Numbered from the stretch's first letter, positions 22,247 to 50,911 are shown. The stretch is 64,000 nucleotides of DNA from Desulfomonilia bacterium (GCA_050014195.1 JBEKDT010000007.1:32001-96000); one strand, 5' to 3'. A program made the numbers and translations. Notes: generated by a model not told the origin, from the letters alone.

Positions 22247-22360
22247 GAGTCTGGGCCTTGCAGTCGTTTATGAAGAGGGAATCAAAACTGTGAGGTAACA
22301 AGGTAAGAGATACTATTGCTTATCGCAACAACCACAGTTTTAAGTCCTTCAAATACTCCT

Positions 22361-24883
22361 TTAAAATTTCACCTTCTTATAGAAAATCTTCTTCGCTATT
22401 TCCGCTGTTATAATGTAACATATCGTAATTAGTCCTACTATCAGAAGGAACGAGATCGGCAACCGGCTGAATCCAAAAATATCACCAAGCGGCGTAAAGG
22501 GTACTATAAGCGTCATGACAACAATTAACAGAGTTGTCAGCAAGAGATATTTCCCAGGCATGCTTTTAAAGAAGGGCCTCCTTGTACGGATAACCAGCAC
22601 AATGAGTGCTGCTGAGATGACAGACTCCACAAACCATCCTGCCCTGAATTCCTTAGGGTTAGCATGAAGAACGAATAACAATACACCAAAGGTGAGATAG
22701 TCAAACACCGAGCTCACTATTCCGAAGGTAAACATAAACTCGCGGATTGCCTTAATGTCCCAGCGCCGGGGATGATCAACCATTTCGTTATCCACCCTGT
22801 CGGAAGCGATGGTCATCTCAGGGAAATCGGTCATGAGATTGGTGAGCAAGATCTGCTTGGGCAGTAAGGGGAGGAACGGCAGGAACAGGGATGCTCCGGC
22901 CATGCTGAACATGTTTCCGAAATTGGCGCTGGTCGCCATGAACACATACTTGAGCGTGTTAGCAAACGTCGTCCTGCCTGCGCGCACGCCCTCAACAAGA
23001 ACGCCCAGATCCTTTTCGAGTAAAACGATATCAGCCGCATCTTTGGCAACATCAACAGCGCTATCGACGGAAATGCCGACATCGGCAACATGGAGTGCCG
23101 AGGCATCATTGATGCCGTCTCCCATATAACCCACCACATTACCGGCTTTTCTCAGCGCGAGGATGATGCGCTCTTTCTGATTGGGTTCGATTTCGGCAAA
23201 GACATCCACGTCAGCCACACGTTTGAGGAGCGCGGCATCGCTCAACTGACTGAGCTCCGGACCAGTAATGATCCCTGTCTTCGATAATCCCATCTGCCCA
23301 CTGACGTTGGCTGCTACAAGGTGGTTGTCTCCCGTTATGATCTTCAGGGAAACACCGAGGTTTTTCAGATTGGTAATGGTCTCGATAATATTGGGCTTGG
23401 GCGGATCAAAAAGGACAAGGAATCCTGAAAACGTCATGCCTGCTTCGTGGTCTTTGCTTATGCGTGAGTCAGCCCCCATATTCTTATAAGCGACGCCCAG
23501 CGTTCGCAGACCCTTACTACTGAATTCCTCAAAGTGTTGCTGAATTCGGTCCCGCGCTGCAATAATCTCGATGATTTCTCCTCCTTCGGTTTCTACCGAT
23601 GAACAGACGGCAAGCACATTTGAGAGCGCACCTTTGGTCACCATCAAATGCGTATCATCATGTGAAACCAGGATACTTAAACGTTTACGGAAAAAATCAT
23701 ACGGGATTTCATCCTGCTTCCGGTAACCGGACAGGTCAAATTTGCGATGGGTGCGGATGGCTTCATCGATCGGGTTGGTAAACCCTGTTTCATAAAAGGC
23801 GTTGAGATAAGCATAAAGCAGAACTTTATCGCTTGGCGCTCCTTCCACATCAAGGGCGGATTGCAGCTGTACGACCCCTTCGGTCAGGGTGCCGGTTTTA
23901 TCGGAGCAGATCACGTTCATGCTGCCGAAGTTTTCAATCGAGGCGAGCCGTTTGACAATGACCTTTTTTTGAGCCATCCGTTTGGCCCCATGGGCGAGGT
24001 TGATGCTGATAATCGCCGGCAACAATTGCGGGGTCAGTCCGACAGCAAGTGCCAGGGAAAAGAGGAAGGAGTCCAGGACCGGCCGTACCAAGTAGACGTT
24101 GATGGCAAAGATGACCACCACCAGCACCAGTGTGACCTCCATGAGAAAATAGCCGAATCGCCGTATGCCGTGTTCAAATTCCGTTTCAAGCGGCCTGAGT
24201 TTCAATCGCTCAGACACCTTGCCGAATTCGGTTTCCTTGCCTGTGCTTATAACAAGGGCCTGTGCACTGCCACTCACCACATGGGTTCCCATGAAGAGCG
24301 AGTTTGTCCGCTGCCCGAGCGGTATCTCGGCCGCCAATACTGCAACGGTTTTTTCTACGGGGAACGTCTCACCGGTCAGCATTGCTTCATCGACAAAGAG
24401 ATCTTTGGATTCCAGAATCAAACAGTCACCGGGAACAATATCACCAGCGCCTAAGATGACGATATCTCCGGGAATAATCTCTTCTACCGGGATATCTTTG
24501 GGGCCTCCATCACGAAGCACGGAAGCCTTGATTTGCACGATGGCCAGTAACTTCTCTACAGCGTTTGCCGCACCGCGTTCCTGCCAGAACCCGAGTAAGC
24601 CGCTGACGAGAACAATGGTGAGAATAATAAAGGCATCGACAGGATCATGTAAAAAGAATGACAATCCCGTTGCAAATAAAAGCATGAGAATAATAGGACT
24701 CTTGAATTGAGCAAGGAGGAGGGTTACTACATCTGTCCGCTTTGGCGGCTTCAGAAGATTGGAACCATGCTGCGCGAGCCGCTGTCTCGCTTCATCACCG
24801 GTCAATCCTTTATTTGTTGTATTCAGTTGCTGGAGCATCTCCATCGTGGAGCAACTCCAAAAGGGCAGCCGATGCTGGTTCAT
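22361..24883 (-). CDS. mgtA: Magnesium-translocating P-type ATPase
   Basis: LTGET, GLTPQLLP, DKTGTLT, GDGIND, ASANFGNMFS (P3B type). Confidence 0.9.
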   Translation of the reverse strand: MNQHRLPFWSCSTMEMLQQLNTTNKGLTGDEARQRLAQHGSNLLKPPKRTDVVTLLLAQFKSPIILMLLFATGLSFFLHDPVDAFIILTIVLVSGLLGFWQERGAANAVEKLLAIVQIKASVLRDGGPKDIPVEEIIPGDIVILGAGDIVPGDCLILESKDLFVDEAMLTGETFPVEKTVAVLAAEIPLGQRTNSLFMGTHVVSGSAQALVISTGKETEFGKVSERLKLRPLETEFEHGIRRFGYFLMEVTLVLVVVIFAINVYLVRPVLDSFLFSLALAVGLTPQLLPAIISINLAHGAKRMAQKKVIVKRLASIENFGSMNVICSDKTGTLTEGVVQLQSALDVEGAPSDKVLLYAYLNAFYETGFTNPIDEAIRTHRKFDLSGYRKQDEIPYDFFRKRLSILVSHDDTHLMVTKGALSNVLAVCSSVETEGGEIIEIIAARDRIQQHFEEFSSKGLRTLGVAYKNMGADSRISKDHEAGMTFSGFLVLFDPPKPNIIETITNLKNLGVSLKIITGDNHLVAANVSGQMGLSKTGIITGPELSQLSDAALLKRVADVDVFAEIEPNQKERIILALRKAGNVVGYMGDGINDASALHVADVGISVDSAVDVAKDAADIVLLEKDLGVLVEGVRAGRTTFANTLKYVFMATSANFGNMFSMAGASLFLPFLPLLPKQILLTNLMTDFPEMTIASDRVDNEMVDHPRRWDIKAIREFMFTFGIVSSVFDYLTFGVLLFVLHANPKEFRAGWFVESVISAALIVLVIRTRRPFFKSMPGKYLLLTTLLIVVMTLIVPFTPLGDIFGFSRLPISFLLIVGLITICYIITAEIAKKIFYKKVKF

Positions 24884-24952
24884 ACGCGATTCTTCATTTT
24901 ATTCATAGCTTGCTCCATTCGGTGGCTCACCAATGCATCATTTTGTCAGGCG

Positions 24953-29854: not shown

Positions 29855-31472
29855 CAAGATCGATCTTGCGAATGTCCCGGAGGCCTCCACCATACCGATG
29901 AGGCGAATGAGGCTTTCGGTGGTCTGGATCATTCCGCTCCTTGCTGCAATCGTCGCCTTGGGGATAGCGGTTCAGCGGATCATGACAGAGGGGCCGACTA
30001 TCACCATAATCTTCAATCAGGCCGAGGGTATTGAGGCGGGGAAAACCTTTGTTAAATACAAGGAAGTCAACATCGGCCAGGTGACGAAAGTAAAACTTTC
30101 AAAAGACTTCCGGAAAGTTGTGGTCACTGCGAAGATTGATAAAAGTGCGGCAAATCTCCTTGTTGATGATGCAAGATTCTGGATAGAGCAGCCACGCGCC
30201 ACCTTGAGCGGAGTATACGGCATCGGTACGCTGCTGTCAGGCAACTACATAGGATTGGAACCCGGAAAGTCCAAAAGTCAAAGGCGTGAGTTCACAGGCC
30301 TCGAGGTACCGCCAGCGATCACAATTGATCAGCCGGGCAGACGGTTTGTGTTGCAGGCTGACAGTTTCGGCTCGATAGGGAACGGCTCCCCTTTGTATTA
30401 CCGGCAGTTGAATGTGGGACAGGTGATCGACTATGATCTTACGGAGGGCGGGGGGGCAGTCAAGATGGAGATCTTCGTGCGCGCGCCTTACGATAAATTC
30501 GTCACAGATCAGACTCGTTTCTGGCAGTCCGGCGGCATCGACGTGTCTCTTGGGACAGAGGGTTTTTCCGTTCATACTCAGCCGGTATTGTCGATGTTGA
30601 TCGGCGGGATCGCCTTTGAAACGCCCCTCTCTGCTGTTAATCCCAAGCCTGCAGCCGAGAAAGCCGTCTTTAAACTCTTCAGCAACCGTACCGAGGCACT
30701 GGCGAATCCCGAAACGATTGTTTCGTATTACGTCCTGTATTTCAACGAGACGTTGCACGGACTCAATGTTGGTGCACCCGTTATGTTCCTCGGATTACCA
30801 ATAGGCGAAGTCACAGCCGTGGGTCTCGACTATAACCCAGATACGAATATTATTCGACCACGTGTTGACATAGTAATATACCCAACACGGTTCCTGAAAC
30901 ACGTGAAGAACCCATCTGATCTTTATGCAAGGGTCCAGAGCAAGACAGGGCGACATGACTTAATTCAAAATGCGACAGACCGAGGCTTCCGGCCCCAGTT
31001 GCGAAATGCGAATCTGTTGACAGGACAGCTCTATGTCGCATTTGACATCTTTCCGGATGCACCCAAGGTGAGTATTGACTGGACCAAGTCTCCAATTGAG
31101 CTGCCGGTGGTGTCGAGCGGTATGCAGGATTTGCAGAACAAGATAAGCAGCATTCTGGCCAAGATCGATAAAATCCCGATCGATGCCATTAGCGAAGATA
31201 TGAGGAATTCCCTTGCAAGGCTCAATGGGATGGTTCAGCGTATCGACGGAGAAACCCTCCCAGAGTTTAAAACCACGCTTGAAGAACTCAAGCGGGTACT
31301 CTCAAATACCAATGCCACGATGGTCGGCAAGGATGCGCCGACGCAACAGCAACTTCGAGAGACTCTCCAGGAGATCACAAAAGCTGCTCAGGGTGTCAGT
31401 GGACTCACCGAATATCTCGAGAGAAACCCCGAAGCCCTCATTCGAGGAAAAGCAGAGGAGAATCCACGATGA
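29847..31472 (+). CDS. pqiB: PqiB MCE/MlaD-domain intermembrane transport protein
   Basis: VWIIP TM, three MCE domains, TLLSGNYI, NLLTGQLYV, LERNPEALIRG. Confidence 0.92.
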   Translation: MTDKIDLANVPEASTIPMRRMRLSVVWIIPLLAAIVALGIAVQRIMTEGPTITIIFNQAEGIEAGKTFVKYKEVNIGQVTKVKLSKDFRKVVVTAKIDKSAANLLVDDARFWIEQPRATLSGVYGIGTLLSGNYIGLEPGKSKSQRREFTGLEVPPAITIDQPGRRFVLQADSFGSIGNGSPLYYRQLNVGQVIDYDLTEGGGAVKMEIFVRAPYDKFVTDQTRFWQSGGIDVSLGTEGFSVHTQPVLSMLIGGIAFETPLSAVNPKPAAEKAVFKLFSNRTEALANPETIVSYYVLYFNETLHGLNVGAPVMFLGLPIGEVTAVGLDYNPDTNIIRPRVDIVIYPTRFLKHVKNPSDLYARVQSKTGRHDLIQNATDRGFRPQLRNANLLTGQLYVAFDIFPDAPKVSIDWTKSPIELPVVSSGMQDLQNKISSILAKIDKIPIDAISEDMRNSLARLNGMVQRIDGETLPEFKTTLEELKRVLSNTNATMVGKDAPTQQQLRETLQEITKAAQGVSGLTEYLERNPEALIRGKAEENPR

Positions 31473-32062
31473 AAAGACCAGCACACATACTAACATTTAT
31501 AGTAATTGCTTATCTAATCACGGGATGCGCATCGTCTTCACCGTCACGTTTTTATACACTGAATTCCACTGTAGCACCGTCCGTGTTACCGCAGACTAAA
31601 TACTCGGTTTCAGTAGGTCCCGTCTCAGTACCGGCCGCCATCGATCGACTGCAAATAGTTGTTCGGACCGGTCCGAATCAGGTGTTCATCAACGAGTTTG
31701 ACCGTTGGGCCTCACCGCTCAAGGACGATATCGGGCGTGTCGTGGTTGATAACCTCGTTTCACAGCTTGGAACTACGCAAGTATCCACATACACCCAGGC
31801 GACGGCCGCAGGTGCATCATATCGCGTCATGATCGACGTTCTGCGTTTCGATTCGGAACTCGGTAAAGCAGCTACCCTGGATGCTCTTTGGACTGTGAGT
31901 TCCGTGAAGGATGGTAAGTATTATTGGGGTCGCACAACGCATACCGAAGCTACGCAAGGTGACGACTATGCAGCCCTTGTTGCGGCGCATAGCCGCACAC
32001 TCGGTCAGTTGAGCACTGAAATTGCCAAGATAATCGAGGAGATGGAAGCCCAAAAGCCTTGA
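31469..32062 (+). CDS. pqiC: PqiC family lipoprotein
   Basis: LITGC lipobox, FYTL, VGPVSVP..DR, RWASPL; third gene of the operon. Confidence 0.9.
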   Translation: MKRPAHILTFIVIAYLITGCASSSPSRFYTLNSTVAPSVLPQTKYSVSVGPVSVPAAIDRLQIVVRTGPNQVFINEFDRWASPLKDDIGRVVVDNLVSQLGTTQVSTYTQATAAGASYRVMIDVLRFDSELGKAATLDALWTVSSVKDGKYYWGRTTHTEATQGDDYAALVAAHSRTLGQLSTEIAKIIEEMEAQKP

Positions 32063-32078
32063 CACATTCTATTCTGAG

Positions 32079-32300
32079 CACTTCGCTGATCACGAGAGAG
32101 GATTAAGGGCCAAGATATTTTTACTGGTTAAGATAGAAAGACCGACATCATCAATGTACTTACAACCATGACAATTTATGATTCAGAGTGGAAAGCGATA
32201 TCTCTTGATAAAATTACAGAAAGTCAATCGATGAGAGTGAATTACATTATAATTAAAGAAGGGTTCCTAGTAGCACTATCCTTTAAGCCTGTTTATTTGG
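32079..32300 (+). pseudogene. Decayed paralogue of the 55965-56353 lipoprotein
   Basis: TIYDSEWKAISLDKITESQSMRVNYIIIKEGFLVALSFKP aligns to TIYGPDWKAISLEKLTVGQQVRVHYITNKEGFQVAKSIKP; contains a frameshift and a stop. Confidence 0.75.
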
Positions 32301-32522
32301 TTATAAGCAAAAGGTTTTGTCTCAAACACCCTTCCACTTAGCCATTATTTCAGTATAGCAAATTGTTCTCTATGATATTCCAAGTTGTCTAGTAGAAGTC
32401 CTACTTGATTTGAAATTTGTTGAGTGATGTTTGGATCTTGTGTCAGAGGCAACTAACTGAGTTGGGATTTTAAAACCATATATAACATTTGATACATTAA
32501 TATGGAGTGCCTAGCTGCATAG

Positions 32523-32563
32523 GTTTCAACACAAGATTACCAGTTTTCAGAGATTTCAAAACC
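32523..32563 (+). repeat. Dispersed intergenic repeat, copy 1 (GTTTCAA-N28-AAAACC core)
   Basis: Ungapped 41-bp alignment with the copies at 34099, 35867 and 37294. Confidence 0.85.
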
Positions 32564-32711
32564 GTGATGAGATCGAAGAATCTTCAATCTTGGCTAATCG
32601 TAATGTGTGGAACTAAATCTTCACATAGGTATATTATTTCAAAGCCTCCAGGTTGGCACATGATATATGATTTCGTGATATGGATATGCGCTATTCAGAG
32701 GAGAACTAATT

Positions 32712-33800
32712 ATGGGAACGATACCATTGAGGTATTTGATGATAGTCCTTCTCGTCATAAACTTATTTCTTTCGTCTTGCATAACAGAGCATGAGCTCTA
32801 TCAATCAGCAAGCGGCGAAAAGGAGTTGCCTAAATGGCGCATCCTGTCAAGGGCTCGAGAAGAATTCGGGCCATATACTCAATGGAAGGAAGCCCTGATA
32901 AAGGAGCTCATAGACGGCAGCCGGATTGTTTATACCAAGATGGGTCCTGTAGAATATTCCATCAATGGAGAAAGCGGGCCATACCTTATCGTCATGCACG
33001 GAGCCCCGGGCGGATATGACCAGACAGCTGCCCTGTTCAGCGATATGTTCGGTAAAGGGTTGCGTATCCTCAGTTGGTCTCGGCCCGGCTATCTCCGTAC
33101 CCCCTTACAAGACGGGAATATGTATGAAGAGCAGGCCGACGTTGCAGCCGCCCTTATGGATAATTTAGGCATTAAGCGGGCTTCTGTTCTCGGGTATTCT
33201 GCCGGAGGACCGGTGGCTGTCTATTTTGCTACCCGGTACCCCAAGCGTATCTGGGCGCTTATCCTTGAATGTGCAGTGACCCAGAAATGGGTTGTCAGTT
33301 CCGAGAATCTGGAGGAAAAGATCTACTTCGGATACCTGATGTACAATGATCCTTTCCTCTGGACTTCCGAGATCACCGGACGGATTGCACCACGGCTCAT
33401 CGGTATGTCGACTATCGAGATGGAAAGCACTCTTGATAAAGCGGCAGCACAGAAGCTGATGGATGATATTATGCATGATCCGCGAAGGGTGAAGGTGCTC
33501 AAAGACCTTATGAACAGCATGAGCCCTGGAAACCTCCGCAGAGATGGCATGGAGAACGATGTGGAGCAGCTCAAGAAGGTGAAAGACCTTCCTCTCGATA
33601 AAATCAAGGCGCCTACCTTGATTATCCATGGGACCGACGATGCAGATGTCTCAGTTGCAGATGCAGCGCTTGCATCCAATACAATACCCAATGCGAAGTT
33701 ATATCTCGTGCATGGTGGGTTTCATGTCATGGCCCTGACAGATACGATTGATGAGATAACTGAAAAGAGGGTCATGTTCTTAAAAAAATACTCCCCTTAA
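32712..33800 (+). CDS. Exported alpha/beta hydrolase
   Basis: Possible lipobox LSSC; HGAPGG, GYSAGG nucleophile elbow, HGTDD, GGFH. Confidence 0.88.
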   Translation: MGTIPLRYLMIVLLVINLFLSSCITEHELYQSASGEKELPKWRILSRAREEFGPYTQWKEALIKELIDGSRIVYTKMGPVEYSINGESGPYLIVMHGAPGGYDQTAALFSDMFGKGLRILSWSRPGYLRTPLQDGNMYEEQADVAAALMDNLGIKRASVLGYSAGGPVAVYFATRYPKRIWALILECAVTQKWVVSSENLEEKIYFGYLMYNDPFLWTSEITGRIAPRLIGMSTIEMESTLDKAAAQKLMDDIMHDPRRVKVLKDLMNSMSPGNLRRDGMENDVEQLKKVKDLPLDKIKAPTLIIHGTDDADVSVADAALASNTIPNAKLYLVHGGFHVMALTDTIDEITEKRVMFLKKYSP

Positions 33801-34098
33801 TGAGAACCTGGGGGAGAGATGAGTATCATTTCTGCAGAACTATTCACCTTGGTTAAAATTTATATTTAACATGTATGTTCATGTGGTATATCGCTGGGTT
33901 CAATCTCTAACTATCAACTGTAGATCCCTACGATAACTTATGGGTTTAACAAGACCTGAGAAACCGTAGATTTTGCCAAGGCCAATAGTTATTCCAGACC
34001 ATAGCTTATTTTCCATAACCTACGAAAAAGAGGGGCATGCAGAAGTGAAGATTACATACCAGATGTCACGCTCTGATATAGAGCGCCTTGTAGCATAG

Positions 34099-34139
34099 GT
34101 TTCAAAACAAGATCTTCAGTTTTCTTTCATCTTAAAACC
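34099..34139 (+). repeat. Dispersed intergenic repeat, copy 2
   Basis: 41-bp core; similarity to copy 3 extends about 85 bp upstream (CCATAA...GGGCATG...ACATACCAGATGT.ACGCTCTG). Confidence 0.85.
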
Positions 34140-34252
34140 TTGAAGAAATCGCATTTATCTACAATTGACCATCAAAGATTGAGACCACCGCAGGATGTGT
34201 GGTTTAGCTGTTTCATGAATAACTCTTTCATCATTCTGTAATCTGCCCATCC

Positions 34253-35728
34253 TTACACCACTCTCTTAAAGTCTATATATCCACGTTCCACATTAGTATG
34301 GACCAGTTTCACGCGGATCCGGTGGCCGACATCCAGGCCTTTAAAACCACTCTCCAGTCTTCCCTCGATGGGTAGGTGCAGAAGACGGACCCACGTACCT
34401 TTTTCCGCTGCGCCGGTTACAATGGCATCAAACTGTTCCCCAATCCTCGATTCGAGCAATATTGCTGCTGCGGATTTTGTGACCTGCCGTTCTACTTTTT
34501 TAGCTGTGTGTTCTGCTTCGGTGCAGTGCTTGGCGAGTTCAGCCAACTCGTCGTTTTCGTAAGGTCGGGCACGTCCCGAAATAGCCGCTTTCAGCAACCG
34601 TTGGGTAATAACATCGGGGTATCTGCGGTTCGGTGCGGTGGAGTGTTCGTAATCCTTGACTGCAAGACCGAAGTGCCCGGCGACACTGCCTTCCGGAAGT
34701 TGGATGACATATTCACCCGGACCAAGGAGTTTGATGACGCTGAGAGAGAGATCGGGAAAGCGGAGAGGATCAGCAGCTTTCGCCGATACTAAGAATTGCT
34801 CCAGTGCCTTTGCGTTGGATTCCTTGGGCAACGCTAAGCCCCGCTCTGCGGCAAGCTCGATGATCCGATCCCAGCGTTTGGGTGTGCGAACCGCACGCCT
34901 CAGCGACGGGAACTTTTTAGAAGCGAGGTATCGTGCGGTAACGCCGTTAGCCGCGATCATGAACTCCTCAATAATTTCTGTGGCCCTGTTCTTCTTTTCT
35001 GCTTCCAAGTCCTTTAGTTTATCTCCATCAAAGACCGGACGTGCTTTTATTGTTTCGAGGTCAAGCGCACCATGCAGGTGCCTAAGTGCTTTCAGTTTCT
35101 GGGCCACGAGGTCCTGAAGTCGAAGGTTCTCGTCAAGCCCCTTAACCGCGTCGATCCCTTGCGGCATCGGGCCATTACCTTCAATCCAAGCAGCAACACT
35201 ATTGTAAGCAAGCTTGGCCCGATTACAGACTATCGCACCATAGAGGTCTGAACTCTGGAGCGATCCATCCCCTGTGAGAACCATTTCAATGACCACGGCA
35301 AGGCGGTCTGATTCATAGTTGAGAGAGGTAAGATCCGTGGAGAGTTTCTCTGGCAACATCGGAAACGTCCCGCCAACGGTATAGACCGAGGTTGTGTTTT
35401 GCCGTGCATGATCGTCAAGTGCCGATTGCTTCTTGACGAGTGCATCCACGTCGGCAATGGCGACATAGATCTTTGCGGACTCATTGGGCATGGATTCGGC
35501 AACGGTAAGCTGGTCCAGATCCAGCGAATCATCGTTATCGATGGAGCACCAGAGAAGGTTCCTGAGATCACGTGTCGATTCCTCAGTTCGCATCGCTGGA
35601 GCGTTGATTCCATCGAGTTCGGCGATTGCCTGGGGCGGAAAATCTGGAGCAAGGCCTCTTTCAAGCATAGCCCAATGGGCAATTCTTTGTAGGGTCGAGC
35701 GGTGTTGCCTGTCGTCGGTATTCGTCAT
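34253..35728 (-). CDS. RNB-domain (RNase II/R family) ribonuclease
   Basis: SIDNDDSLDLDQ, AIADV, EEFMIAAN, HFGL...HSTAPNRRYPD, C-terminal S1-like domain. Confidence 0.9.
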   Translation of the reverse strand: MTNTDDRQHRSTLQRIAHWAMLERGLAPDFPPQAIAELDGINAPAMRTEESTRDLRNLLWCSIDNDDSLDLDQLTVAESMPNESAKIYVAIADVDALVKKQSALDDHARQNTTSVYTVGGTFPMLPEKLSTDLTSLNYESDRLAVVIEMVLTGDGSLQSSDLYGAIVCNRAKLAYNSVAAWIEGNGPMPQGIDAVKGLDENLRLQDLVAQKLKALRHLHGALDLETIKARPVFDGDKLKDLEAEKKNRATEIIEEFMIAANGVTARYLASKKFPSLRRAVRTPKRWDRIIELAAERGLALPKESNAKALEQFLVSAKAADPLRFPDLSLSVIKLLGPGEYVIQLPEGSVAGHFGLAVKDYEHSTAPNRRYPDVITQRLLKAAISGRARPYENDELAELAKHCTEAEHTAKKVERQVTKSAAAILLESRIGEQFDAIVTGAAEKGTWVRLLHLPIEGRLESGFKGLDVGHRIRVKLVHTNVERGYIDFKRVV

Positions 35729-35866
35729 AATCTCACCTTTCTGGAATAATAGCTAATTGGGCTCAGCCGTTGATTATGTACCATAATCAACGCAAAAGGT
35801 GGGCATGGAAAATCATAGATAACATACCAGATGTGACGCTCTGGCATGAAGTGATAAGTTTCGTAT

Positions 35867-35907
35867 GTTTCAACACATGATCTTCAGTTTCCAGGCATCT
35901 TAAAACC
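35867..35907 (+). repeat. Dispersed intergenic repeat, copy 3
   Basis: 41-bp core plus upstream extension. Confidence 0.85.
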
Positions 35908-36001
35908 GATATGAATCGAAGAAAACTCAAAGTCTTGCGTCGATGATGGTCGCAAATAATTTGCCTTAGAGTGAAAATTTGCACCAATGTTCTTAGTACA
36001 C

Positions 36002-37048
36002 TTAGTGGGAGGATTTGAATATATTATACGTATCCGGATAGGTCGAGTTCAGTAGTTTCATTCCAGATTCAAACCTCTTTACCCATCCTTTTCCTCGTGA
36101 TCGTAATGATTCCATCGCCATCGGGAGATCTCCAGGCCTATCTTCTATAAGGAGTTTTATGAGTTGAGATGCCTGGAAGAGATCTTTTGTGGCTTTGATG
36201 CTGCTCGAAACCGGACGCTCCCCGGAAATCAGAAGTTTATGGACAGCGAATCTTGCAGGATCTGGTATGCTCACTAAAATTCCTCCCCCGTTTGTCACAG
36301 CTGCCTGTATCTGAGATTCTATGAGATAATCGAGGTACATGAGAGGTTGTGCTGCAGTCTTTAACCTCGGGATAAAAATAGGTGTTACCTGGTCAGGTTT
36401 TTTTGCAGGAGTGAGAACATCAACTCTGAGTTCCTTACCTCGGATATGAAATGACGTTGAGGGATGTTTATGATTCAAAGGGGGAATAGGCAGAAAACCC
36501 ATCTGGAGGCTCTCGAGAACCCCTGGAACGTCAGTTGAGAGGTCAGGGACAGCAACTTCCATATGTAATGATCCAGCGATGTCAATATCCTGAGTACGGA
36601 GAGAAGGCTTCTCCCATTTAACTCCGAGGGTATTGCCCATGATTAGAAATGCATGGGTACCGATAAGAACACCGCCTAATTTGAAAAAACCACTATCGGA
36701 TAATGCCTTCAATACCCTGGCCGTTTCTGGATCAGTGATATTTGCACCGCCAATGCGAAGCTGACTGCATAGCCTATTGATGTTATCGACTTCCTCCTTA
36801 ACATTTTGGCGATCGCTGATATAATTTTCAATAAAGCTGTCAATTACAGGACTGCGGGGACCTATATAAATCTGGCGTGCCACACCTCCTGGCTCGCTCG
36901 ACTGGAAATAGCAATACTCTTTTCCCTTAACAGGTTTAACAGTAAAACAGCCTGATAGACTCCCAATCGATCTATGCGCTTCCGCGATAATGAGTTGTTC
37001 TACAAGCTCGGCATAAAGTGTTTGAGTAACCAGGGGTATTCTATTCAT
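36002..37048 (-). CDS. GSU2403-family nucleotidyltransferase-fold protein
   Basis: LIGTHAF...RTQDIDIA, VDVLTP, PDPARFAVHKL, KDLFQA. Confidence 0.8.
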   Translation of the reverse strand: MNRIPLVTQTLYAELVEQLIIAEAHRSIGSLSGCFTVKPVKGKEYCYFQSSEPGGVARQIYIGPRSPVIDSFIENYISDRQNVKEEVDNINRLCSQLRIGGANITDPETARVLKALSDSGFFKLGGVLIGTHAFLIMGNTLGVKWEKPSLRTQDIDIAGSLHMEVAVPDLSTDVPGVLESLQMGFLPIPPLNHKHPSTSFHIRGKELRVDVLTPAKKPDQVTPIFIPRLKTAAQPLMYLDYLIESQIQAAVTNGGGILVSIPDPARFAVHKLLISGERPVSSSIKATKDLFQASQLIKLLIEDRPGDLPMAMESLRSRGKGWVKRFESGMKLLNSTYPDTYNIFKSSH

Positions 37049-37084
37049 AGTTATACGTAGAGTGTCATAATTCTATGTATAACT
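37049..37084. promoter_or_regulatory. Inverted-repeat operator abutting the start codon
   Basis: AGTTATACGTAGA-N10-TCTATGTATAACT (12/13 complementary). Confidence 0.6.
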
Positions 37085-37293
37085 CAAGGATGAAGTTTAT
37101 TCTTTTCATTGTGTGTGCTTGCATTTGTATATCCTTATGCCCGCAATCATTGTTTGTTCTCTGCTCACATTAAGTGATTTTATCCGAGTTCTATGCTCAA
37201 ATTAAATGCGAATAGGAAAATATAAATTATCAACATAGGCATCATAAAGGGCATGCCAAAACACACGCTCTGATGTAGTGCATTGCTGGATAT

Positions 37294-37334
37294 GTTTCAA
37301 CTCAAGATCTTCAGTATTCAGACCTCATAAAACC
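37294..37334 (+). repeat. Dispersed intergenic repeat, copy 4
   Basis: 41-bp core plus upstream GGGCATG and ACGCTCTG. Confidence 0.85.
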
Positions 37335-37489
37335 GAAATGAAATGCGGTTATGTTTTCTTAGGCTTGTAGATAAGTTTTCTACTTCAAGGTATTATTTAA
37401 TTTATTATAGTTACCTTATTCCGCCCCATCTGGCGCTAAACCTTATCTCAAAAATACAAAAAGTTCTGGGTAGAGCTTCTGGAGGTTTA

Positions 37490-37771
37490 TCAGGTCTTGC
37501 CATTTACCCGGTCTCTCATATCTTTGCCGGTTTTAAAGAAGGGCAGGGTCTTTTTCTTAACCTGAATTTTCTCGCCACTCTTTGGATTTCTCCCGGTATA
37601 GGGTTTGTAATCCCTCATGACAAAGCTTCCGAACCCACGAATTTCGACCCGCTGCTTGCCCTTCATGGCAATAATCATGGCATTGAGGGTGGAGTTCACC
37701 AAGGCCTCTGCCTTTTTCGGGTGGAGAGCCATTCGCATGGAAAGTTCTTCAATCAGTTCCGATTTGTTCAT
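37490..37771 (-). CDS. Integration host factor beta / HU family protein
   Basis: MNKSELIE, EIRGFGSF, GRNPKSG, PFFKTGK. Confidence 0.92.
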   Translation of the reverse strand: MNKSELIEELSMRMALHPKKAEALVNSTLNAMIIAMKGKQRVEIRGFGSFVMRDYKPYTGRNPKSGEKIQVKKKTLPFFKTGKDMRDRVNGKT

Positions 37772-38080
37772 GTATCTCCTCCAACTTTTGTATAATTATT
37801 CATAGATTATAAAGACATCCATGCACATGTCAAGGAATTATGGCTGACCCCCCAGGAACGGATGAGGGTAAAGGTACCCAATATTTTTTACAGAGAACAT
37901 TCGACAATACTAAAAAAATCAAAGTTCTCATAATTTGAGCTAGATCGCATTCTTTGTGAATGAGATTGCATCTCCAAATTGACCTGAGAGAAATGCAGTG
38001 AGCAAATGCATTAATAGCTATACAAAAGGTATCTTTCCTATAGCGATATGTGTTATAGTGATTATCTGAGAGGGGTTGGA

Positions 38081-39142
38081 ATGGGTGAAAATCAGCATCA
38101 AATCGCTATACGAAATAATTCTTATGAGATCAGCATCCCTGAAGGTGATCAGGACACCTTATACTTCTGGCTGAAAAATTATCTCGAGCATGCCGTCACT
38201 ACCGCAGAGAACTCCCGCAAAGTTCAGGTGAGGGACCTATCGCTCTTCATCCGGTTCGCTGAAAAAGAAGGCGCTCTCATGAGATCGGTGTGGACTCCCA
38301 GGTTATCCCGGGCGTTCATAGACTTCCTGAGGACAACCCTCAGGTCCGGAGGACAACGGTACTGGGCAGACAGGACTATCAACCGGATCCTGGCGCACGT
38401 GAAGACCTTTGCGAAGTGGATCCACAAGCTTGCTCCTTTTCCGCTTGGGAACCCCATGGGGAATATCAGGCTCATGGGGGTAGGGGAGAACCTCGATATC
38501 GAACGGGCATTCTCCGATGGCGAACGTCGCAAGCTGCTCGATGCTGCAGACCTTCTGCCTTCGGTCTGGGGGAAGAGTAGGGACCGTAGGAGAAATAAGA
38601 ATACTGAACCTGTGGCCAGGCCCAGGAGGAAGTACGCACGCCCATGGCGCAACCGGGCCATGATGTATACCTTGATCGAAACCGGCATGCGCAGGGCTGC
38701 ATTAGTGAATATCAATATCAGTGACATTGACTGGGATCATCATCTTATCATTACAGTAGAGAAGGGTGGGTATTCCCATTCCTATTCAATCAGTGATCAG
38801 GGATTGAAGGCGATCCTAGATTATCTGGCCGATGAGCGTGAAGTGGATAAAGGAGAGGGATTGAATGCTCTGTTCCTGCCGGCAAGTACCATCCGGAACA
38901 GCAGTGGCCGTCTTACACCCCTCGTGGTCAACCATGTATGGGACGAGGTGTGCACTCTTGCCCAGGTCTCAGGTAAAACACCGCACTCTGCCCGGCATGC
39001 TATGGGGAGGCACATTATTGAGAAGACCGGGAACATTGCTGCAGTCCAGAGGCAGCTTGGGCATAGGAATGTAGCTTACTCGGTGCAATATGCGAGGGTG
39101 TCAAATAAAGAGTTGAGGGATGTGCTGAACAATAGATCTTGA
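38081..39142 (+). CDS. Tyrosine recombinase/integrase
   Basis: Complete catalytic set R (ETGMR), K (EKGG), HSAR, LGH, Y (VQY); N-terminal SAM-like domain; start trimmed to MGEN. Confidence 0.92.
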   Translation: MGENQHQIAIRNNSYEISIPEGDQDTLYFWLKNYLEHAVTTAENSRKVQVRDLSLFIRFAEKEGALMRSVWTPRLSRAFIDFLRTTLRSGGQRYWADRTINRILAHVKTFAKWIHKLAPFPLGNPMGNIRLMGVGENLDIERAFSDGERRKLLDAADLLPSVWGKSRDRRRNKNTEPVARPRRKYARPWRNRAMMYTLIETGMRRAALVNINISDIDWDHHLIITVEKGGYSHSYSISDQGLKAILDYLADEREVDKGEGLNALFLPASTIRNSSGRLTPLVVNHVWDEVCTLAQVSGKTPHSARHAMGRHIIEKTGNIAAVQRQLGHRNVAYSVQYARVSNKELRDVLNNRS

Positions 39143-39288
39143 TTTCTAAATTCAAAGACTTGCGCAAGAGAATACTCCTTACTCCTCTATTTTTAGCAGG
39201 AATGATGTTGATATCCGTCGGCTATGGCCTCTCACCTCGGTTGGAACGAATACCTGCGGTGCTTATAATTTTATCCTCTACCCTTTAT

Positions 39289-42219
39289 TCATGAATTTAT
39301 AATCCACGCTGCGTTAGCAGCACCGCCTCGCCGAACATATTCAAGACCATAAAGCATGAGATCAGCAAGATGTTCGTCTATTTGGCTTTGCGCAATTCCT
39401 GGCTGTACTGCATACACATCGAAAAAGAGCTTATTTGCAGGAGTATCCTTGAGAATCCTTTGCAGGATTGGGAAATCTCCCACGATGAATCGGGAAGGGC
39501 AACTGTGACGGTGTTCATTGATCCTGTGTTCAACATGATTGCAAAGAACAGAGGCTTCGCAATAAGCTACAGATTTAAGCACTTGCCCGGCCACTTCACA
39601 TACATCGTCAAAGCGGCCACCTGAGGGAGAACCTCCCGCCCCTTTGCAGTGATATAAAGATACACGAAAAATCTCGTCTTCACATTTCGTTATGGCTATA
39701 AAGTCAGCAGCCTCTCCACTACGGTGGTCATAAATCAGGGCCTGAAGACCAGCCAAGTTCTGAAGGTGATGCTCTAGATACTGATGAACCGTCATTTGCC
39801 CGTTAGCCCTTGCTTCATCGCATTCAACCTGGATTGCACATCCGTCCCAGTCTAAAATTGTTGTATCGTCGGGAGCGAGAGTAGCAGCAGTTATTTTTGG
39901 TGGACGCATTAGGTTCATTCCTTCAAAAGAGGATTTATCTGCTGCGTAAAATATCGGTGGATGCATTGCCATCCATGTTCCTATAGGCATCCAGTCGTCT
40001 AAACCTGACAAAATTTCAATGGTCCAATCCTGCGAGTCCTGCTTGACTAGAACCCCACCAGTGAGTGTAAAAATGAATTTTGTAGCGAATGAATCATTGC
40101 CGATTTCGAAACGAAGAAACTGTTTATCGTCTGAGGTATTGAAGTTAGCAAATTCAAGATCAGTGACCTGTGAATAATGCCATCCATCTTCATTCTCGCG
40201 TCGGTACCTGACTCGAGGAGCGGATCGATAAGCTACCTTGTTCCAACCGGCAGCGATGATTCTTTCGGGAATCTTTTGTAATAATCGTGCATGTTGCACT
40301 ATATCGAGTTGAGAGGCTGCAATCTCATCATCACCGTTAAGTCGATTGTTTAAAATGGTTATCCAATCAAGATATTCAGCAACCGTAAGTCGCTTATTAC
40401 TCCAAATTCGCGAACTACTACTTGCACCAATTGTTTCTCGTTCCTGGTTAGAAACTCCACTGCCGAAGAAGTGCCCTTGGACATATGCCCGACCATCGCC
40501 AGCCGTCACTGCCCGCTCGGCGTGTGGTCCGGTAAGCATTCTATAAGATTCAGCCTGAGTGTTAATTGCTGTGTTCTTAAATCCAAGATTGTAAAACCGA
40601 AGCCCTGTGAGTCCAGCAAGTGCTCGGCGTGTAACTTCATAGCTTAATGGACGATGTTTTTCTGGACAGACTGTTTCCATCAGTTCCAGATAGATTCTTT
40701 TAGTTCGTCTAGTAGAACCAATAAAACAAAGCCTCGTGGCATCATTGAATGCTAGAAGGAATGCATCGTGTCGTGAATTAGCCAAAGCGTCTGAAGCAGC
40801 CCAGTCGGGTGGAGAGTGATCTATAGTAAGAAGGAGGGTAATCAGACCATCTTCGGAAATCCATTGTTTTACGAGTTGCAGATTCCTCCCTACAATAGGC
40901 TGGACTGCTGAAAAATCCGGTTTTTCGCTGCAATGAAAAATCTGGGCATGCGCATAAAGTTTTAAGAGTAGGGGCGATACTGCGTCATAATCTGACAAAG
41001 CTTGTTTCTTTACTTTCAGGATTTGAAGGATTTCTCTATCGGCTTCAGCTTCCGCTACTTGAGCCTGTGCAACATCATCAATCAATTCTGCCACATCGAC
41101 GCCTTCTTGGAAGAGCTTGAAAATTGCGTCTTTTAACTTACTGATAGGCGCAATCAGCGTAGCGTCTCCTGTACTAACATCATTTGTACGGGCGAAACGG
41201 CCAATAAATTGCAGTGTGGGTACAAGTGATCTATGTGGCTCATGTAAAGCTGCTATCTTGAGCTTCGGAAAATCGTATCCCTCGCCAAACATGTCCACGC
41301 ACACCACCCCATCAAGCTCTCCATCAATAAGTCGTTTTTCGATCACATCCTGATATCGCCTTGATACATGACTAGCAATGGCTTCAATATTTGCCCCGAT
41401 ATCGGCGTATACCTTAACCAGTGCCTTTGCTGATTTGATGGAACCAGTCCGAGCGAAGATGCGATGATCGAATCCAGCCGTACGGTCTCTTGAGAGCTGT
41501 TCGAAAGCCAACTGTGCGACGGACTGCTCAATCTCCGACTCGTCTTGATCATTGACAACGGGAGCAGCCATGAAACGTACCTTACCAAATGCTTTCTCAC
41601 GAGATGCTTTAGTGACAGGATAGCAATAGGCAAGGCGTCCAGGAATTGGTAGCCGATCACGCCTAAATGGAGTAGCAGTGAGGAATACAAATCGTGCTTC
41701 CGAGAAGTGTTCAAGGTATGCATTCCATGTTTGAGCTGGTGCATGGTGTGCCTCATCAAGGATGATCAAATCAAAAAGGTCAATAGGAGGATTCGGCGCG
41801 AGGCTAGGAGAGGTGCTATTAGGAGTTGAGACAACGATGTCAACCTTCCGCATATTATCCCATTGGGCTTCAGAAGTAGGTCTTCCTTTTTGCCCAAGAA
41901 CCTTGGGATTAGGAAACATATCATCTACAACACTGATCTTATGAAGGATTGATAATACTCTAAAATGCCCAGTAGTTTGCTTGCGTAAAGCATCAGATGG
42001 TTCCACTATAAGTAATCGCCTGGACTTGAGTATAAAAGGTAAAGCCATCATTACAGCTGTTTTACCATAACCAGTTGGAAGCGAAAGCAATGCAGGCTCC
42101 TCGTAAACAGAAAAATGCGACATCACAGCATGCAATGCACCCAATTGGCCTGGCCTGAAACCATTGTTTGGCGAGGTTAGTAGCCGAATAGATAATGAGT
42201 TGTCTTCAAAGTAACCCAT
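39289..42219 (-). CDS. SF2 DEAH helicase with putative C-terminal nuclease domain
   Basis: PTGYGKT, DEAHH, TATP, EGYD, QFIGRFAR; C-terminal D..SGEAADFI...YHCK. Confidence 0.85.
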   Translation of the reverse strand: MGYFEDNSLSIRLLTSPNNGFRPGQLGALHAVMSHFSVYEEPALLSLPTGYGKTAVMMALPFILKSRRLLIVEPSDALRKQTTGHFRVLSILHKISVVDDMFPNPKVLGQKGRPTSEAQWDNMRKVDIVVSTPNSTSPSLAPNPPIDLFDLIILDEAHHAPAQTWNAYLEHFSEARFVFLTATPFRRDRLPIPGRLAYCYPVTKASREKAFGKVRFMAAPVVNDQDESEIEQSVAQLAFEQLSRDRTAGFDHRIFARTGSIKSAKALVKVYADIGANIEAIASHVSRRYQDVIEKRLIDGELDGVVCVDMFGEGYDFPKLKIAALHEPHRSLVPTLQFIGRFARTNDVSTGDATLIAPISKLKDAIFKLFQEGVDVAELIDDVAQAQVAEAEADREILQILKVKKQALSDYDAVSPLLLKLYAHAQIFHCSEKPDFSAVQPIVGRNLQLVKQWISEDGLITLLLTIDHSPPDWAASDALANSRHDAFLLAFNDATRLCFIGSTRRTKRIYLELMETVCPEKHRPLSYEVTRRALAGLTGLRFYNLGFKNTAINTQAESYRMLTGPHAERAVTAGDGRAYVQGHFFGSGVSNQERETIGASSSSRIWSNKRLTVAEYLDWITILNNRLNGDDEIAASQLDIVQHARLLQKIPERIIAAGWNKVAYRSAPRVRYRRENEDGWHYSQVTDLEFANFNTSDDKQFLRFEIGNDSFATKFIFTLTGGVLVKQDSQDWTIEILSGLDDWMPIGTWMAMHPPIFYAADKSSFEGMNLMRPPKITAATLAPDDTTILDWDGCAIQVECDEARANGQMTVHQYLEHHLQNLAGLQALIYDHRSGEAADFIAITKCEDEIFRVSLYHCKGAGGSPSGGRFDDVCEVAGQVLKSVAYCEASVLCNHVEHRINEHRHSCPSRFIVGDFPILQRILKDTPANKLFFDVYAVQPGIAQSQIDEHLADLMLYGLEYVRRGGAANAAWIINS

Positions 42220-50239: not shown

Positions 50240-50360
50240 TGGCGAGGTCAAGGTATTTTACATAGACTGTACTAAACTGTGGATTTTGAGCTGGAGAACA
50301 AGATCTGCCATCCGGACTCTTAACTCAATGATTTGACTTGTCTCGAATTAATGATTCAGT

Positions 50361-50822
50361 TTATTGTTCTATGATCAAATCATCCCTGATATCTATACAG
50401 CCTATGACGCTTTGAGCTGCAGGACAAAAGGGGAGATAAAGAGAAAAGGCCTCTTTTGCCTCTCCGATCTTCTCCTGAGGCAATCTGAGATGGTAATTCA
50501 CTCTTATCCGAGTAATCTTGAGTATACCATTGACGTTCTCGATATCACCTTCAACATCTGCCCAGAATTTATCTTCGGGGGTGGGGATCTTTTTTCCGGC
50601 CAGCACCGTGGCCAGTGTTCCCATCATTCAGGCAGCTACTGCTGCTACGATATGATCAAGGGTCGCAGCATGTTCCTTTTCAGGTTCAACTTTATAAAAC
50701 TTCTTTATCCCCCCATGAACACCATAATATACAGGCTCATTAAACCCTTCAATGAGTGCTTTTCGGGTGGGGCCTTTTTCCCGAAAAATCTTGATGCGTG
50801 AAGTGTGAACGATCTCTCCCAT
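50361..50822 (-). CDS. OsmC-family selenoprotein (UGA at 50628-50630)
   Basis: Two in-frame ORFs joined by TGA: AAVAA-U-MMGT with downstream FCPAAQS Cys; SECIS-like hairpin at 50596-50615. Confidence 0.85.
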
Positions 50823-50911
50823 TTTTCACCACCTCTTTTCATCATATTCAGGATATCAGTTTATTACCGTTTGATCACCATGTGCTGAGCAAAGGTATCT
50901 CCAGTTGTAAA

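Follow-up and report, generated by a model that had tools for sequence, protein, structure and literature searches.

RUP and BOX of Streptococcus pneumoniae are elements of the MITE type, and BOX is modular, with A, B and C modules. attC sites, which fold as imperfect hairpins through paired R″/R′ and L″/L′ boxes, also occur as clusters without an integrase (CALINs), while the integrases of the IntI clade carry an extra domain inside their catalytic domain. The pdif sites of Acinetobacter plasmids are 28-bp XerC/XerD sites in alternating orientation. The Correia elements (CREE) are MITE-type elements, and the intergenic mosaic elements of Neisseria (NIMEs) are composed of RS elements flanked by dRS3 (PMC1797815). 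The same paper contains its authors' proposal that NIMEs are substrates for homologous or site-specific recombination exchanging adjacent genes (PMC1797815). Four direct repeats are compared here with these systems. They lie in a 64,000-nt stretch of DNA from a Desulfomonilia bacterium, analysed whole and referred to as the window (JBEKDT010000007.1:32001–96000; coordinates on this contig, C7, were converted to window positions). The four repeats are probably members of a genus-restricted, non-coding, modular interspersed family, a new MITE-like or NIME-like mosaic that marks recombination junctions. The searches and comparisons reported below demonstrate that the repeat is dispersed and modular, that it carries neither a coding nor a folded-RNA signal, that it is independent of the neighbouring recombinase and that homology breaks at its ends. 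Copies lie between genes throughout the genome, typically at the edges of gene- or operon-sized blocks that are placed differently in related genomes.

The four copies share one orientation, with cores at 32523, 34099, 35867 and 37294. A repeat search recovered them as one family of 76-nt copies at 32500, 34076, 35844 and 37271, spaced 1576, 1768 and 1427 nt apart, in which copies 2, 3 and 4 are 76%, 66% and 71% identical to copy 1; copies 2 and 3 have 141 nt in common at 74%. A degenerate 26-nt core pattern matches the window at exactly these four sites, all on the + strand, against 0.01 matches expected from shuffles and four matches reached in 0 of 100 shuffles, which confirms the four direct repeats described in an earlier note on this DNA. 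Profile searches (nhmmer) extend each copy beyond the core. Copy 1 (32429–32596, +; C7:64429–64596) covers profile positions 9–185 (E 1.9e-27), carries a C-type 5′ extension and, in alignments, has a diverged left module. Copy 2 (33994–34180, +; C7:65994–66180; profile 4–192, E 6e-41) has an A-type 5′ extension and is the most complete of the four. Copy 3 (35768–35924, +; C7:67768–67924) covers profile positions 10–169, and copy 4 (37190–37369, +; C7:69190–69369; profile 16–187) is degenerate at its 5′ end.

Each interval between the window copies holds one long ORF, as called with a crude in-house script, and the three genes are mutually unrelated. Between copies 1 and 2 lies an alpha/beta hydrolase gene (32712–33800, +; Pfam Abhydrolase_1, 3.6e-14). 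Its 85% identical paralogue at C11:6607–7634 also has a repeat copy beside it, with the relative orientation of gene and repeat reversed. Because the genome was assembled as a MAG of 29 contigs with 2.26% contamination, some apparent paralogues could stem from a co-binned strain. Homologues of the hydrolase at 78–79% occupy unrelated places in two relatives (G007 and G013). The gene between copies 2 and 3 (34253–35728, −) encodes an RNB/RNase II-type protein of 491 aa with an RNB domain and a C-terminal S1 domain (Pfam RNB, 3.1e-78; RNase_II_C_S1, 3.5e-19), and has a DNA match in none of the five related genomes searched. Between copies 3 and 4 is an NTP_transf_8 nucleotidyltransferase gene (36002–37048, −; Pfam PF12281, 1.7e-54). 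The earlier description of one unrelated gene per interval holds for the window but not in general, since intervals at other repeat loci include operons of four to five genes. The Mla operon, an operon for a NiFe hydrogenase and single genes, a lipid A acyltransferase among them, occupy such intervals, and other copies adjoin a class I aldolase and citrate synthase.

Beyond copy 4 follow an IHF-beta-like gene (−) and then a tyrosine recombinase (+). Direct orientation, one gene per window interval and an adjoining tyrosine recombinase transcribed away from the array would suit a divergent integron or CALIN, with the repeats as attC-type sites and the neighbour as their integrase; attC arrays and CALINs resemble the repeats here in that direct repeats separate single genes and clusters occur far from any integrase. 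Such an origin is nevertheless extremely improbable. The repeats have no conserved hairpin and no R/L-box pairing with covariation, and, unlike attC arrays, they have housekeeping operons between copies and no IntI. Against the integron integrase models the recombinase scores 31.1 bits with TIGR02249 (cut-off 265), matching only over residues 311–359, and 23.5 bits with NF011946 (cut-off 435). It has partial matches to XerC, XerA and XerD, and its PDB match, to a XerC-like structure, covers only the catalytic domain (residues 189–360), continuously and with small gaps. No large insertion inside the catalytic domain appears in the alignment to Xer structures; the unusual basic insertion recorded earlier is present, and is positioned before that domain. 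By these comparisons the recombinase is Xer-like, not an IntI, and, in contrast to the integrase of an integron, it is part of another element. The earlier judgement that this is no classical integron stands. Integron or CALIN membership was rejected on the features tested, namely attC fold, IntI clade and co-occurrence of the integrase with the repeat (0/14 versus 7/14).

The recombinase (gene 38048–39142, +) belongs to a duplicated unit with about 120 nt of upstream DNA (37927–39142), and this unit is the left boundary of an island with relaxase and defence genes. A second copy of the unit lies at C7:130613–131839, 97.5% identical in DNA and identical in protein, and a broken fragment is found at C1:121982; contig depth over the unit is about 1.4–2 times that of its flanks in all four metagenome runs. 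No repeat copies were found near these two other places in the genome. To the right of the window recombinase, Pfam matches over 39289–62888 reveal a helicase, DUF2971, a trio of TerB-N, BrxC/D-like ATPase and DEAD helicase, a Vsr–DUF4928–cytosine methylase group and a MobA/MobL relaxase, and neither pattern nor profile search found a repeat copy in this segment. The recombinase is probably the integrase of this island. The ihf block (37446–37835, −; gene 37490–37771) is, by its similarity, a gene-sized duplicate of the host ihfB, not a dedicated accessory factor. It scores 105.9 bits with the NCBIfam IHF beta model, under the cut-off of 115, and is 90% identical in protein and 85% in DNA to the resident copy at C8:106276–106554, whose syntenic region contains the ihf gene in four relatives. 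A 12/12 sigma-70 match (37833–37806, −) predicts that the window ihfB has its own promoter. The adjacency of recombinase and ihf to the repeat array is probably incidental.

The earlier note had read the array as recombination sites left by serial single-gene capture tied to the adjacent IHF and recombinase, an interpretation that is only partly supported. The recombinase clade (E ≤ 1e-20) occurs in none of 14 same-genus genomes, seven of which bear the repeat, and the co-occurrence that a profile check was expected to reveal is thereby contradicted. Across the genome the 26-nt pattern has 24 matches (13 forward, 11 reverse), compared with none for a reversed control. The family profile built from these matches recovers 61 copies (E < 1e-3) grouped into 38 loci, 26 of which are single copies. 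The recombinase adjoins only the window locus, and a Phage_integrase domain is found in 0 of 134 ORFs at 11 further loci with several copies. Copies are thus dispersed over the whole genome without regard to the recombinase, an outcome that the earlier note itself had named as refuting, and the inference of a cassette system in the form first proposed fails. Outside the genus, the repeat was found neither in the 10 genomes from other genera of the family nor in the 16 from a second family. When 185,579 species genomes were scanned with a strict pattern, all 14 stretches recovered lay in two Desulfomonilia or 'delta proteobacterium' MAGs, and no match was found in plasmids or phages. The copies are old, with a mean pairwise identity of about 66%, and neighbouring copies are no more alike than other pairs (67.6% versus 65.8%, permutation p 0.17).

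The repeat is a mosaic of about 125–260 nt around a core of about 125 nt that runs from (T)AGAT(T/A)AC to ATCG(C/A)AGNNATC. Its modules include at least three alternative types of 5′ extension, left-only and right-only forms and one inverted junction, and a short form of about 65 nt is inferred to be an internal-deletion derivative. Column identity is 0.67–0.74 within the element, compared with 0.32–0.39 in the flanks, and conservation along the element is uniform, without a peak at a core. Read by eye, the termini are short inverted sequences, 7 bp in the consensus (GAT(T/A)AC ... GT(T/A)ATC), which one subfamily lengthens to a 13-bp pair, AGATCTCTGCGAT / ATCGCAGAGATCT, and which take the form TCTGCGA...TCGCAGA in one pair of copies on contigs C14 and C19. 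Also by eye, a motif ATAGAT(T/A)A / AAGATC recurs at module borders, and the types of left and right module are combined differently from copy to copy. In one copy the right terminus is doubled in tandem.

Short, non-coding, multi-copy and dispersed, the family is MITE-like, in line with one alternative raised in the earlier note. It resembles the MITE-type elements Correia/CREE, RUP and BOX in its narrow lineage as well as in its defined ends, apparent short inverted termini, internal-deletion-like shorter forms and modular build. It differs from them in that the termini are inverted over only about 7 bp in most copies, neighbours are co-oriented, the copies do not fold stably, searches for a parent IS or transposase gave none and no target duplication was established. 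Among the copies compared, no consistent flanking target-site duplication was seen; of those read by eye, only about half have TA before the left end. An autonomous element, sought as an inverted pair of either terminus 0.3–5 kb apart, was not found in the genome, nor was a match to an IS630-type DDE_3 transposase, although a MAG can lack collapsed IS copies. A genome k-mer scan for CRISPR arrays (at least three 20-mers spaced 45–100 nt) found none, its single match lying inside an ankyrin-repeat gene. On the preferred reading of a mosaic interspersed family, the elements may have spread with a putative transposase supplied in trans, or have been carried along with blocks of DNA.

Neither a fold nor a reading frame is conserved. 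RNAalifold gives a consensus structure of 0 pairs for 29 copies, and hand-picked hairpins are paired in 73.9% of cells, compared with 73.4% in shuffles. The imperfectly inverted core ends noticed earlier do exist in the consensus, but they show no covariation (79.9% of cells paired versus 80.3% in shuffles). Single-stranded DNA fold z-scores are near zero on both strands in three of the four window copies, and the fold varies from copy to copy; copy 2 alone folds better than shuffles (z −3.2 and −2.8). Rfam 15 gives no relevant match at E ≤ 1 in window positions 30000–40000, where two chance-level matches (E 0.29–0.4) are unrelated, lie outside the repeats and fall well under gathering scores. 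These results speak against the structured RNA offered earlier as an alternative. The repeats could instead be a functional transcript or regulatory element: a terminator or insulator, for example, or small RNAs of one family under selection at the ends of genes. Many copies sit right beside the 3′ end of a gene, repeat–gene distances of 3–50 nt being common on both sides, three of the four window copies lie just downstream of minus-strand genes, and the left modules of copy 3 and copy 4 contain two terminator-like hairpins on the minus strand. We consider this role quite improbable, however: terminator-like sites are not enriched in copies (6 versus 4.1 ± 1.9 expected), copies face their neighbouring genes either way round (3′ side, 36 opposite and 23 same; 5′ side, 31 same and 30 opposite), and no consensus structure, covariation or Rfam family was found. 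Descent from the decayed 3′ end of a repeated gene had been suggested by a frame that ends just before the core of copy 2. This is very improbable, given that any one of the six frames is open in at most 6 of 29 copies, with none preferred; the longest stretch common to copies is about 230 nt and similarity never reaches a shared upstream ORF.

Of 23 pairs of neighbouring copies separated by less than 8 kb, 22 share one orientation (two-sided binomial 6e-6), while pairs farther apart are 9 same and 10 different by hand count. A hand count in relatives gives about 12–13 same and 1 different for pairs within 8 kb. Independent transposition leaves this local co-orientation unexplained.

Comparison of the genome under study (G000) with five relatives (G002, G003, G007, G011 and G013) shows homology blocks that end at or beside repeat copies, and agrees with the earlier expectation of variable gene content between copies. 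The point at which homology with G003 or G007 stops coincides exactly with a copy's 5′ or 3′ end; at other loci it lies inside or beside copies. An orthologue of copy 3 adjoins the same nucleotidyltransferase gene in G007, where the block (G007:C13) is 88% identical over window positions 35812–37213, as is the gene, and its flanking genes differ. This homology begins at the 5′ boundary of copy 3, ATCATAGATA, and stops about 35 nt before the core of copy 4. An SdrD-like ORF with a repeat is common to G003:C17 at 88%, in a different context and with a break at the 5′ edge of the repeat. A radical-SAM module has a different context in each of four genomes, two of which have co-oriented copies on its flanks. 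At no otherwise collinear site did the orthologous comparisons show one copy cleanly present in one genome and missing from another; they show one-sided breaks and replaced blocks rather than the plain insertion of a single copy. Movement of blocks is not confined to places with the repeat: in G002, G007 and G003 the citrate-synthase slot is occupied with no repeat copy there, and the window P-type ATPase block, also a moving block, has no adjoining copy. The repeat may therefore merely accompany variable DNA and not cause the shuffling.

These patterns can also be read as the work of a chromosomal cassette system, in which an enzyme acting in trans (a host Xer-type recombinase or another), and not the neighbouring recombinase, would cut out units of a repeat and its adjacent gene and place them at resident copies with a set orientation, giving co-oriented arrays. 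Gene modules bounded by short sites and a host-encoded recombinase would then recall pdif modules, although the repeats here are at least 125 nt long, chromosomal and co-oriented. The confinement of co-orientation to distances below 8 kb, the G007 unit that extends from the 5′ edge of copy 3 to that of copy 4, the SdrD-like and radical-SAM modules, the shuffled module types and the doubled terminus all fit such a system, and the same idea has been put forward for NIME arrays (PMC1797815). We nevertheless regard it as unlikely. No candidate enzyme was found, break points fall at the 5′ edge, at the 3′ edge and inside the repeat, with no fixed position, and the uniform conservation lacks a core peak; most loci are single-copy, intervals include housekeeping operons, the same slot is filled in three genomes without a repeat, and the order of the window array is identical in all four metagenome runs (2017–2025) wherever contigs bridge it. 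It is also rather unlikely that the repeat ends are crossover points of integrase-independent chromosomal gene capture, through which repeat-plus-gene or repeat-plus-operon units would enter at resident copies in fixed orientation, by means of an enzyme whose gene lies elsewhere or, following DNA uptake, of recombination assisted by homology. If that were so, it would account for co-oriented arrays at about a dozen loci, and housekeeping as well as accessory genes would move between species of this peat genus.

Under the preferred reading of a MITE-like or NIME-like mosaic, the repeat ends, together with homology between copies, may act as junctions at which recombination shuffles adjacent genes. 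Two features of the NIME type, alternative module combinations and association with variable flanking genes, are both found in the family. NIMEs are likewise non-coding and modular, form intergenic arrays beside genes that vary between genomes, and differ in their arrays between related genomes (PMC1797815). The family here is distinguished from them by the lack of an evident 20-bp dRS3-type inverted repeat between modules, by about 61 copies versus many hundreds in Neisseria, by units of 125–260 nt with genes and not just RS spacers between copies, by strict local co-orientation and by its host, an uncultured peat Desulfomonilia bacterium. Exchange between copies is apparent at one place: the C14 and C19 copies are 97% alike, and their G003 orthologues, assigned by flanks, resemble each other and not their G000 counterparts. 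This demonstrates gene conversion between two neighbouring copies (concerted evolution).

The array in the window is a four-member direct repeat family, recovered by a repeat search of the window at positions 32500, 34076, 35844 and 37271, with copy-to-copy spacings of 1576, 1768 and 1427 nt. Copies 2, 3 and 4 share 76%, 66% and 71% identity with copy 1, and copies 2 and 3 have 141 nt in common at 74%. A degenerate 26-nt version of the core described in the earlier note has four matches in the window, which are exactly these copies (32429–32596, 33994–34180, 35768–35924 and 37190–37369), all on the forward strand, against 0.01 expected in shuffles. Both searches thus confirm that the four direct repeats are real. 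Each interval contains one long ORF: an alpha/beta hydrolase (+) between copies 1 and 2, an RNB/RNase II-type protein (−) between copies 2 and 3, and an NTP_transf_8 nucleotidyltransferase (−) between copies 3 and 4. An IHF-beta-like gene (−) comes next beyond the array, followed by a tyrosine recombinase (+). The RNB/S1 protein, which is strain-specific and lacks N-terminal cold-shock domains, lies on the same strand as the nucleotidyltransferase with copy 3 between them (34253–37048), and the two could be a functional pair in defence or RNA turnover.

The array stretch is found in environmental data. At least 0.83 of its words are contained in 24 runs of peat and wetland metagenomes from 23 studies (2017–2025), one of which may be the source sample of the metagenome-assembled genome (MAG); no RNA run is among the array-bearing runs listed. 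Contigs of four metagenome runs from four studies bridge the array in identical order, and in three of the four a 2491-nt contig crosses copies 3 and 4 with zero differing letters. Three long joints were also seen in contigs of four runs (32475>37291, 32530>35879 and 37323>34067), with sides of only 25–33 letters and loose ends that match other genomic copies of the repeat. Their interpretation as excision products or circles was rejected in favour of cross-alignment of other copies, the search being of contigs, in which rare junctions are invisible.

Copies of the repeat are dispersed throughout the host genome, a 4.2-Mb MAG in 29 contigs with 2.26% contamination. The 26-nt pattern has 24 matches there (13 forward, 11 reverse) and its reversed control none, while an nhmmer profile built from these 24 copies has 61 matches at E<1e-3 in 38 loci, the 24 among them matching by construction. 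A DNA search with copy 2 detects the repeat in 7 of the 14 same-genus genomes (each species is represented by a single genome, and the genomes are not mutually independent), but in none of 10 from other genera of the same taxonomic family and none of 16 from a second one. When one genome from each of 185,579 species was scanned with a strict pattern, 14 stretches matched, all of them in two MAGs with the titles Desulfomonilia bacterium or uncultured delta proteobacterium, and plasmid and phage collections gave no match. The proposal that the array is a cassette system tied to the adjacent recombinase is refuted by this distribution, and by a criterion that the earlier note itself set: the recombinase clade is found in none of the 14 same-genus genomes at E<=1e-20, 7 of which carry the repeat. 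The window contains a cluster of one newly seen family of modular interspersed repeats, restricted to the genus, to which the recombinase is unrelated. Among the titles listed in a literature search none concerned repeats in Desulfomonilia, and if this plain reading is right, the family is an undescribed one in an uncultured lineage of that group.

The recombinase belongs to another element. It has partial matches only to XerC, XerA and XerD models, and scores 31.1 bits against the integron-integrase model TIGR02249, for which the cut-off is 265. The basic stretch remarked on in the earlier note is placed just before the catalytic domain by alignment to Xer structures, and the domain itself (residues 189–360) aligns to them without a large internal insertion. 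The gene and ~120 nt upstream occur twice in C7, the contig whose positions 32001–96000 are the window, at 69927–71142 (window 37927–39142) and, 60.7 kb downstream in direct orientation, at 130613–131839. The two units are 97.5% identical in DNA and identical in protein, the last six codons differing only synonymously, and a ~60-nt segment upstream of both is conserved. This duplication points to elements in tandem or to an island edge that is repeated. A broken recombinase fragment is present on contig C1, and among the profile matches in the host genome none is near this fragment or the second unit. The integrase segment assembles as its own contig in all four metagenome runs, at a depth ~1.4–2 times that of its flanks. 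To the right of the recombinase (window 39289–62888) are a ResIII helicase, DUF2971, a trio of TerB-N, BrxC/D-like ATPase and DEAD helicase, a Vsr-DUF4928-cytosine methylase (Dcm) module, and a MobA/MobL relaxase. This region is an integrated mobilisable/defence island with the recombinase at its edge, and the repeat cluster abuts the integrase of this separate island by coincidence. The case is a caution: two mobile features with no relation to each other can, by coincidence, place a direct-repeat array beside a tyrosine recombinase.

The IHF-beta-like gene is a duplicated host gene. Its product is 90% identical to that of a second copy on contig C8, and the similarity in DNA (85% over 379 nt; window 37446–37835, C8:106213–106591) comprises the gene and promoter only, with a 12-of-12 sigma-70 consensus match upstream of the window copy. 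In four related genomes the ihf gene lies in a region syntenic with C8. The gene therefore behaves as one more gene-sized block in the array and not as a dedicated accessory factor. The host genome has 10 HU/IHF-family matches, and that at C3:49550–49873 is also within 1.5 kb of a repeat copy.

Alignment of 29–35 copies gives a core of ~125 nt, with a mean column identity of 0.67–0.74 against 0.32–0.39 in the flanks. The 41-nt core of the earlier note is conserved at 0.73, marginally above the rest of the element, and the idea that a more conserved centre forms a binding site was dropped, conservation being nearly flat. Termini, module borders and the shuffling of left and right types were assigned by eye from the alignments. 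On this basis the core runs from (T)AGAT(T/A)AC to ATCG(C/A)AGNNATC, and its ends form short inverted repeats, GAT(T/A)AC/GT(T/A)ATC. One subfamily has a 13-bp inverted end pair, and the copies on contigs C14 and C19 end in TCTGCGA...TCGCAGA. The extension modules found 5′ of the core, roughly 50–90 nt long, are of at least three alternative types, of which the A type (e.g., window 33950–34045) is also found alone and is 83–93% identical across species, above the core. At one locus the right module is inverted relative to the left. Thirteen of the 61 profile matches start at positions 117–126 and so comprise only the 3′ third of the element (~65 nt); most short forms are read as internal-deletion derivatives.

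The properties of the core do not fit a structured RNA or an attC site: there are no predicted pairs, covariation or relevant Rfam match. RNAalifold predicts zero pairs on a 29-copy alignment, and three hairpins picked by eye pair in 73.9% of cells versus 73.4% in shuffles, with a covariation score equal to that of shuffles. The inverted core ends of the earlier note pair no better than chance (79.9% versus 80.3% in shuffles). In single-stranded DNA folding, copy 2 alone beats shuffles (z −3.2 and −2.8); copies 1, 3 and 4 range from −1.07 to +1.14 on both strands, and folds vary from copy to copy. The two Rfam matches at E<=1 (0.29 and 0.4) are to unrelated families beyond the repeats. Nor are the copies gene remnants, as no frame is favoured: none of the six is open in more than 6 of the 29 copies. 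A small ORF in the core (ATG TTT CAA ...) was discarded, since many copies lack its start codon and the substitutions, judged by eye, are without codon periodicity. CRISPR-like solitary repeats were rejected as the host genome is without any CRISPR array.

The suggestion of one gene per interval holds in the window but fails at other loci. Intervals elsewhere contain a five-gene Mla operon, a NiFe hydrogenase operon, a lipid A acyltransferase, a radical-SAM enzyme, PAS histidine kinases and chemotaxis genes, and class I fructose-bisphosphate aldolase and citrate synthase genes directly adjoin other copies. The presence of operons therefore makes single-gene intervals a property of this window only. 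A Pfam scan of 134 ORFs from 11 multi-copy loci, called with a simple and crude script (greedy choice of the longest ORFs, minimum 80 aa), found no Phage_integrase domain. On the 3′ side of copies, 36 genes are opposite and 23 the same in orientation, and on the 5′ side 31 are the same and 30 opposite. Neighbouring copies less than 8 kb apart are co-oriented in 22 of 23 pairs (two-sided binomial 6e-6), and by our count pairs beyond 8 kb are random (9 same, 10 different). In relatives, a count over the best 20 matches tabulated gives about 12–13 same and 1 different within 8 kb. Replication-strand bias does not account for the co-orientation and was rejected, since the GC skew is weak and copy orientation fails to track it (21+15 concordant versus 13+12 discordant). 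Neighbours are 67.6% identical versus 65.8% for other pairs (p 0.17); being no more alike, they are not recent local duplicates, nor are the arrays therefore recent local duplications.

The genome is a mosaic, and repeat copies sit at its seams. A B12-binding radical-SAM gene with ~260 nt upstream (C6:392–2095 in the host genome, G000) is 87–94% identical in the same-genus relatives G002, G011 and G013, with a different context in each of the four genomes. It is flanked by co-oriented copies in G000 and G011, but not in G002 or G013, and its neighbours on either side in G013 are genes that sit next to each other in G000. This module appears to be a gene-sized mobile block. Likewise, the window nucleotidyltransferase with copy 3 is 88% identical to a segment of G007 with other neighbours, the homology running from the exact 5′ edge of copy 3 to a point ~35 nt short of the copy 4 core. 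Homologues of the hydrolase at 78–79% are found elsewhere in G007 and G013, and its 85% paralogue on contig C11 adjoins another repeat copy. Neither the RNB gene nor the pqi operon was found in the relatives searched. PqiB had no match in any of the 14 same-genus genomes at E<=1e-50, and the window flanks are therefore unusable as synteny anchors. In G003, which shares blocks with the host at 93–98%, homology stops exactly at the 3′ end of a copy at one locus; at another it stops at a 5′ edge, and at further loci inside or beside copies.

MITE-like spread by an enzyme supplied in trans is the most likely mechanism; in the host genome, neither a parent element with the same ends nor an IS630-type transposase was found. 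Copies would then be used as junctions in recombination and gene conversion, or would mark such junctions, which resembles the role in recombination and gene exchange proposed for neisserial intergenic mosaic elements (NIMEs; PMC1797815). Strict local co-orientation, together with [repeat + gene] units common to several genomes, would also be expected of an integrase-independent chromosomal capture system, in which such units insert at resident copies in fixed orientation through homology or an enzyme encoded elsewhere. However, the nucleotide of the repeat at which homology breaks is not constant, and we consider such a system improbable beside trans-mobilised MITE-like spread. In these peat genomes gene-sized blocks are exchanged at a high rate, with repeats at many seams, and the seams and co-orientation could allow the NIME-type hypothesis of arrays as gene-exchange engines to be tested in another lineage, unrelated to the first.

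Gene conversion between neighbouring copies does occur. The copies at C14:6306–6426 and C19:89400–89531 are 97% alike in G000, and their G003 orthologues, identified by flanks, are alike mutually and, over the same central segment, unlike the G000 pair, a concerted change from which conversion follows. In G003, a single contig has the sequences matching the C19 end and C14:3862 separated by 178 nt. Other small repeat families, present in several copies in G002 and G003 (72–95% identity), directly adjoin copies at window 32079–32293, C5:35762–36126 and C19:89586–89918.

Blocks also move without the repeat family, which limits the argument from the seams. The slot between a 170-aa ORF and citrate synthase, downstream of the latter, is empty (54–172 nt) in G013, G008 and G001, and is filled in four genomes by three unrelated inserts of 1.1–1.5 kb. 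The G000 insert (C4:218555–220090) carries a PEP-CTERM gene and a short-form copy, and ends in two inward-facing copies of the motif TTTTTCGACA..CTCAA.ACAAGAT, ~150 nt apart; those in G002 and G007 (88% alike) and in G003 are other DNA with no copy of the family. The window P-type ATPase block, shared with G003 at 92%, likewise has no repeat copy beside it. Gene-sized duplicates at 80–97% are found at window 1599–2621, 5224–7084, 22349–24886 and 50291–56354, some of which may stem from a co-binned strain, yet others sit within the single contig C7. They include class I aldolase, FtsH, msrAB and a P-type ATPase that matches two contig ends, as well as an inverted duplication of ~6 kb within C7.
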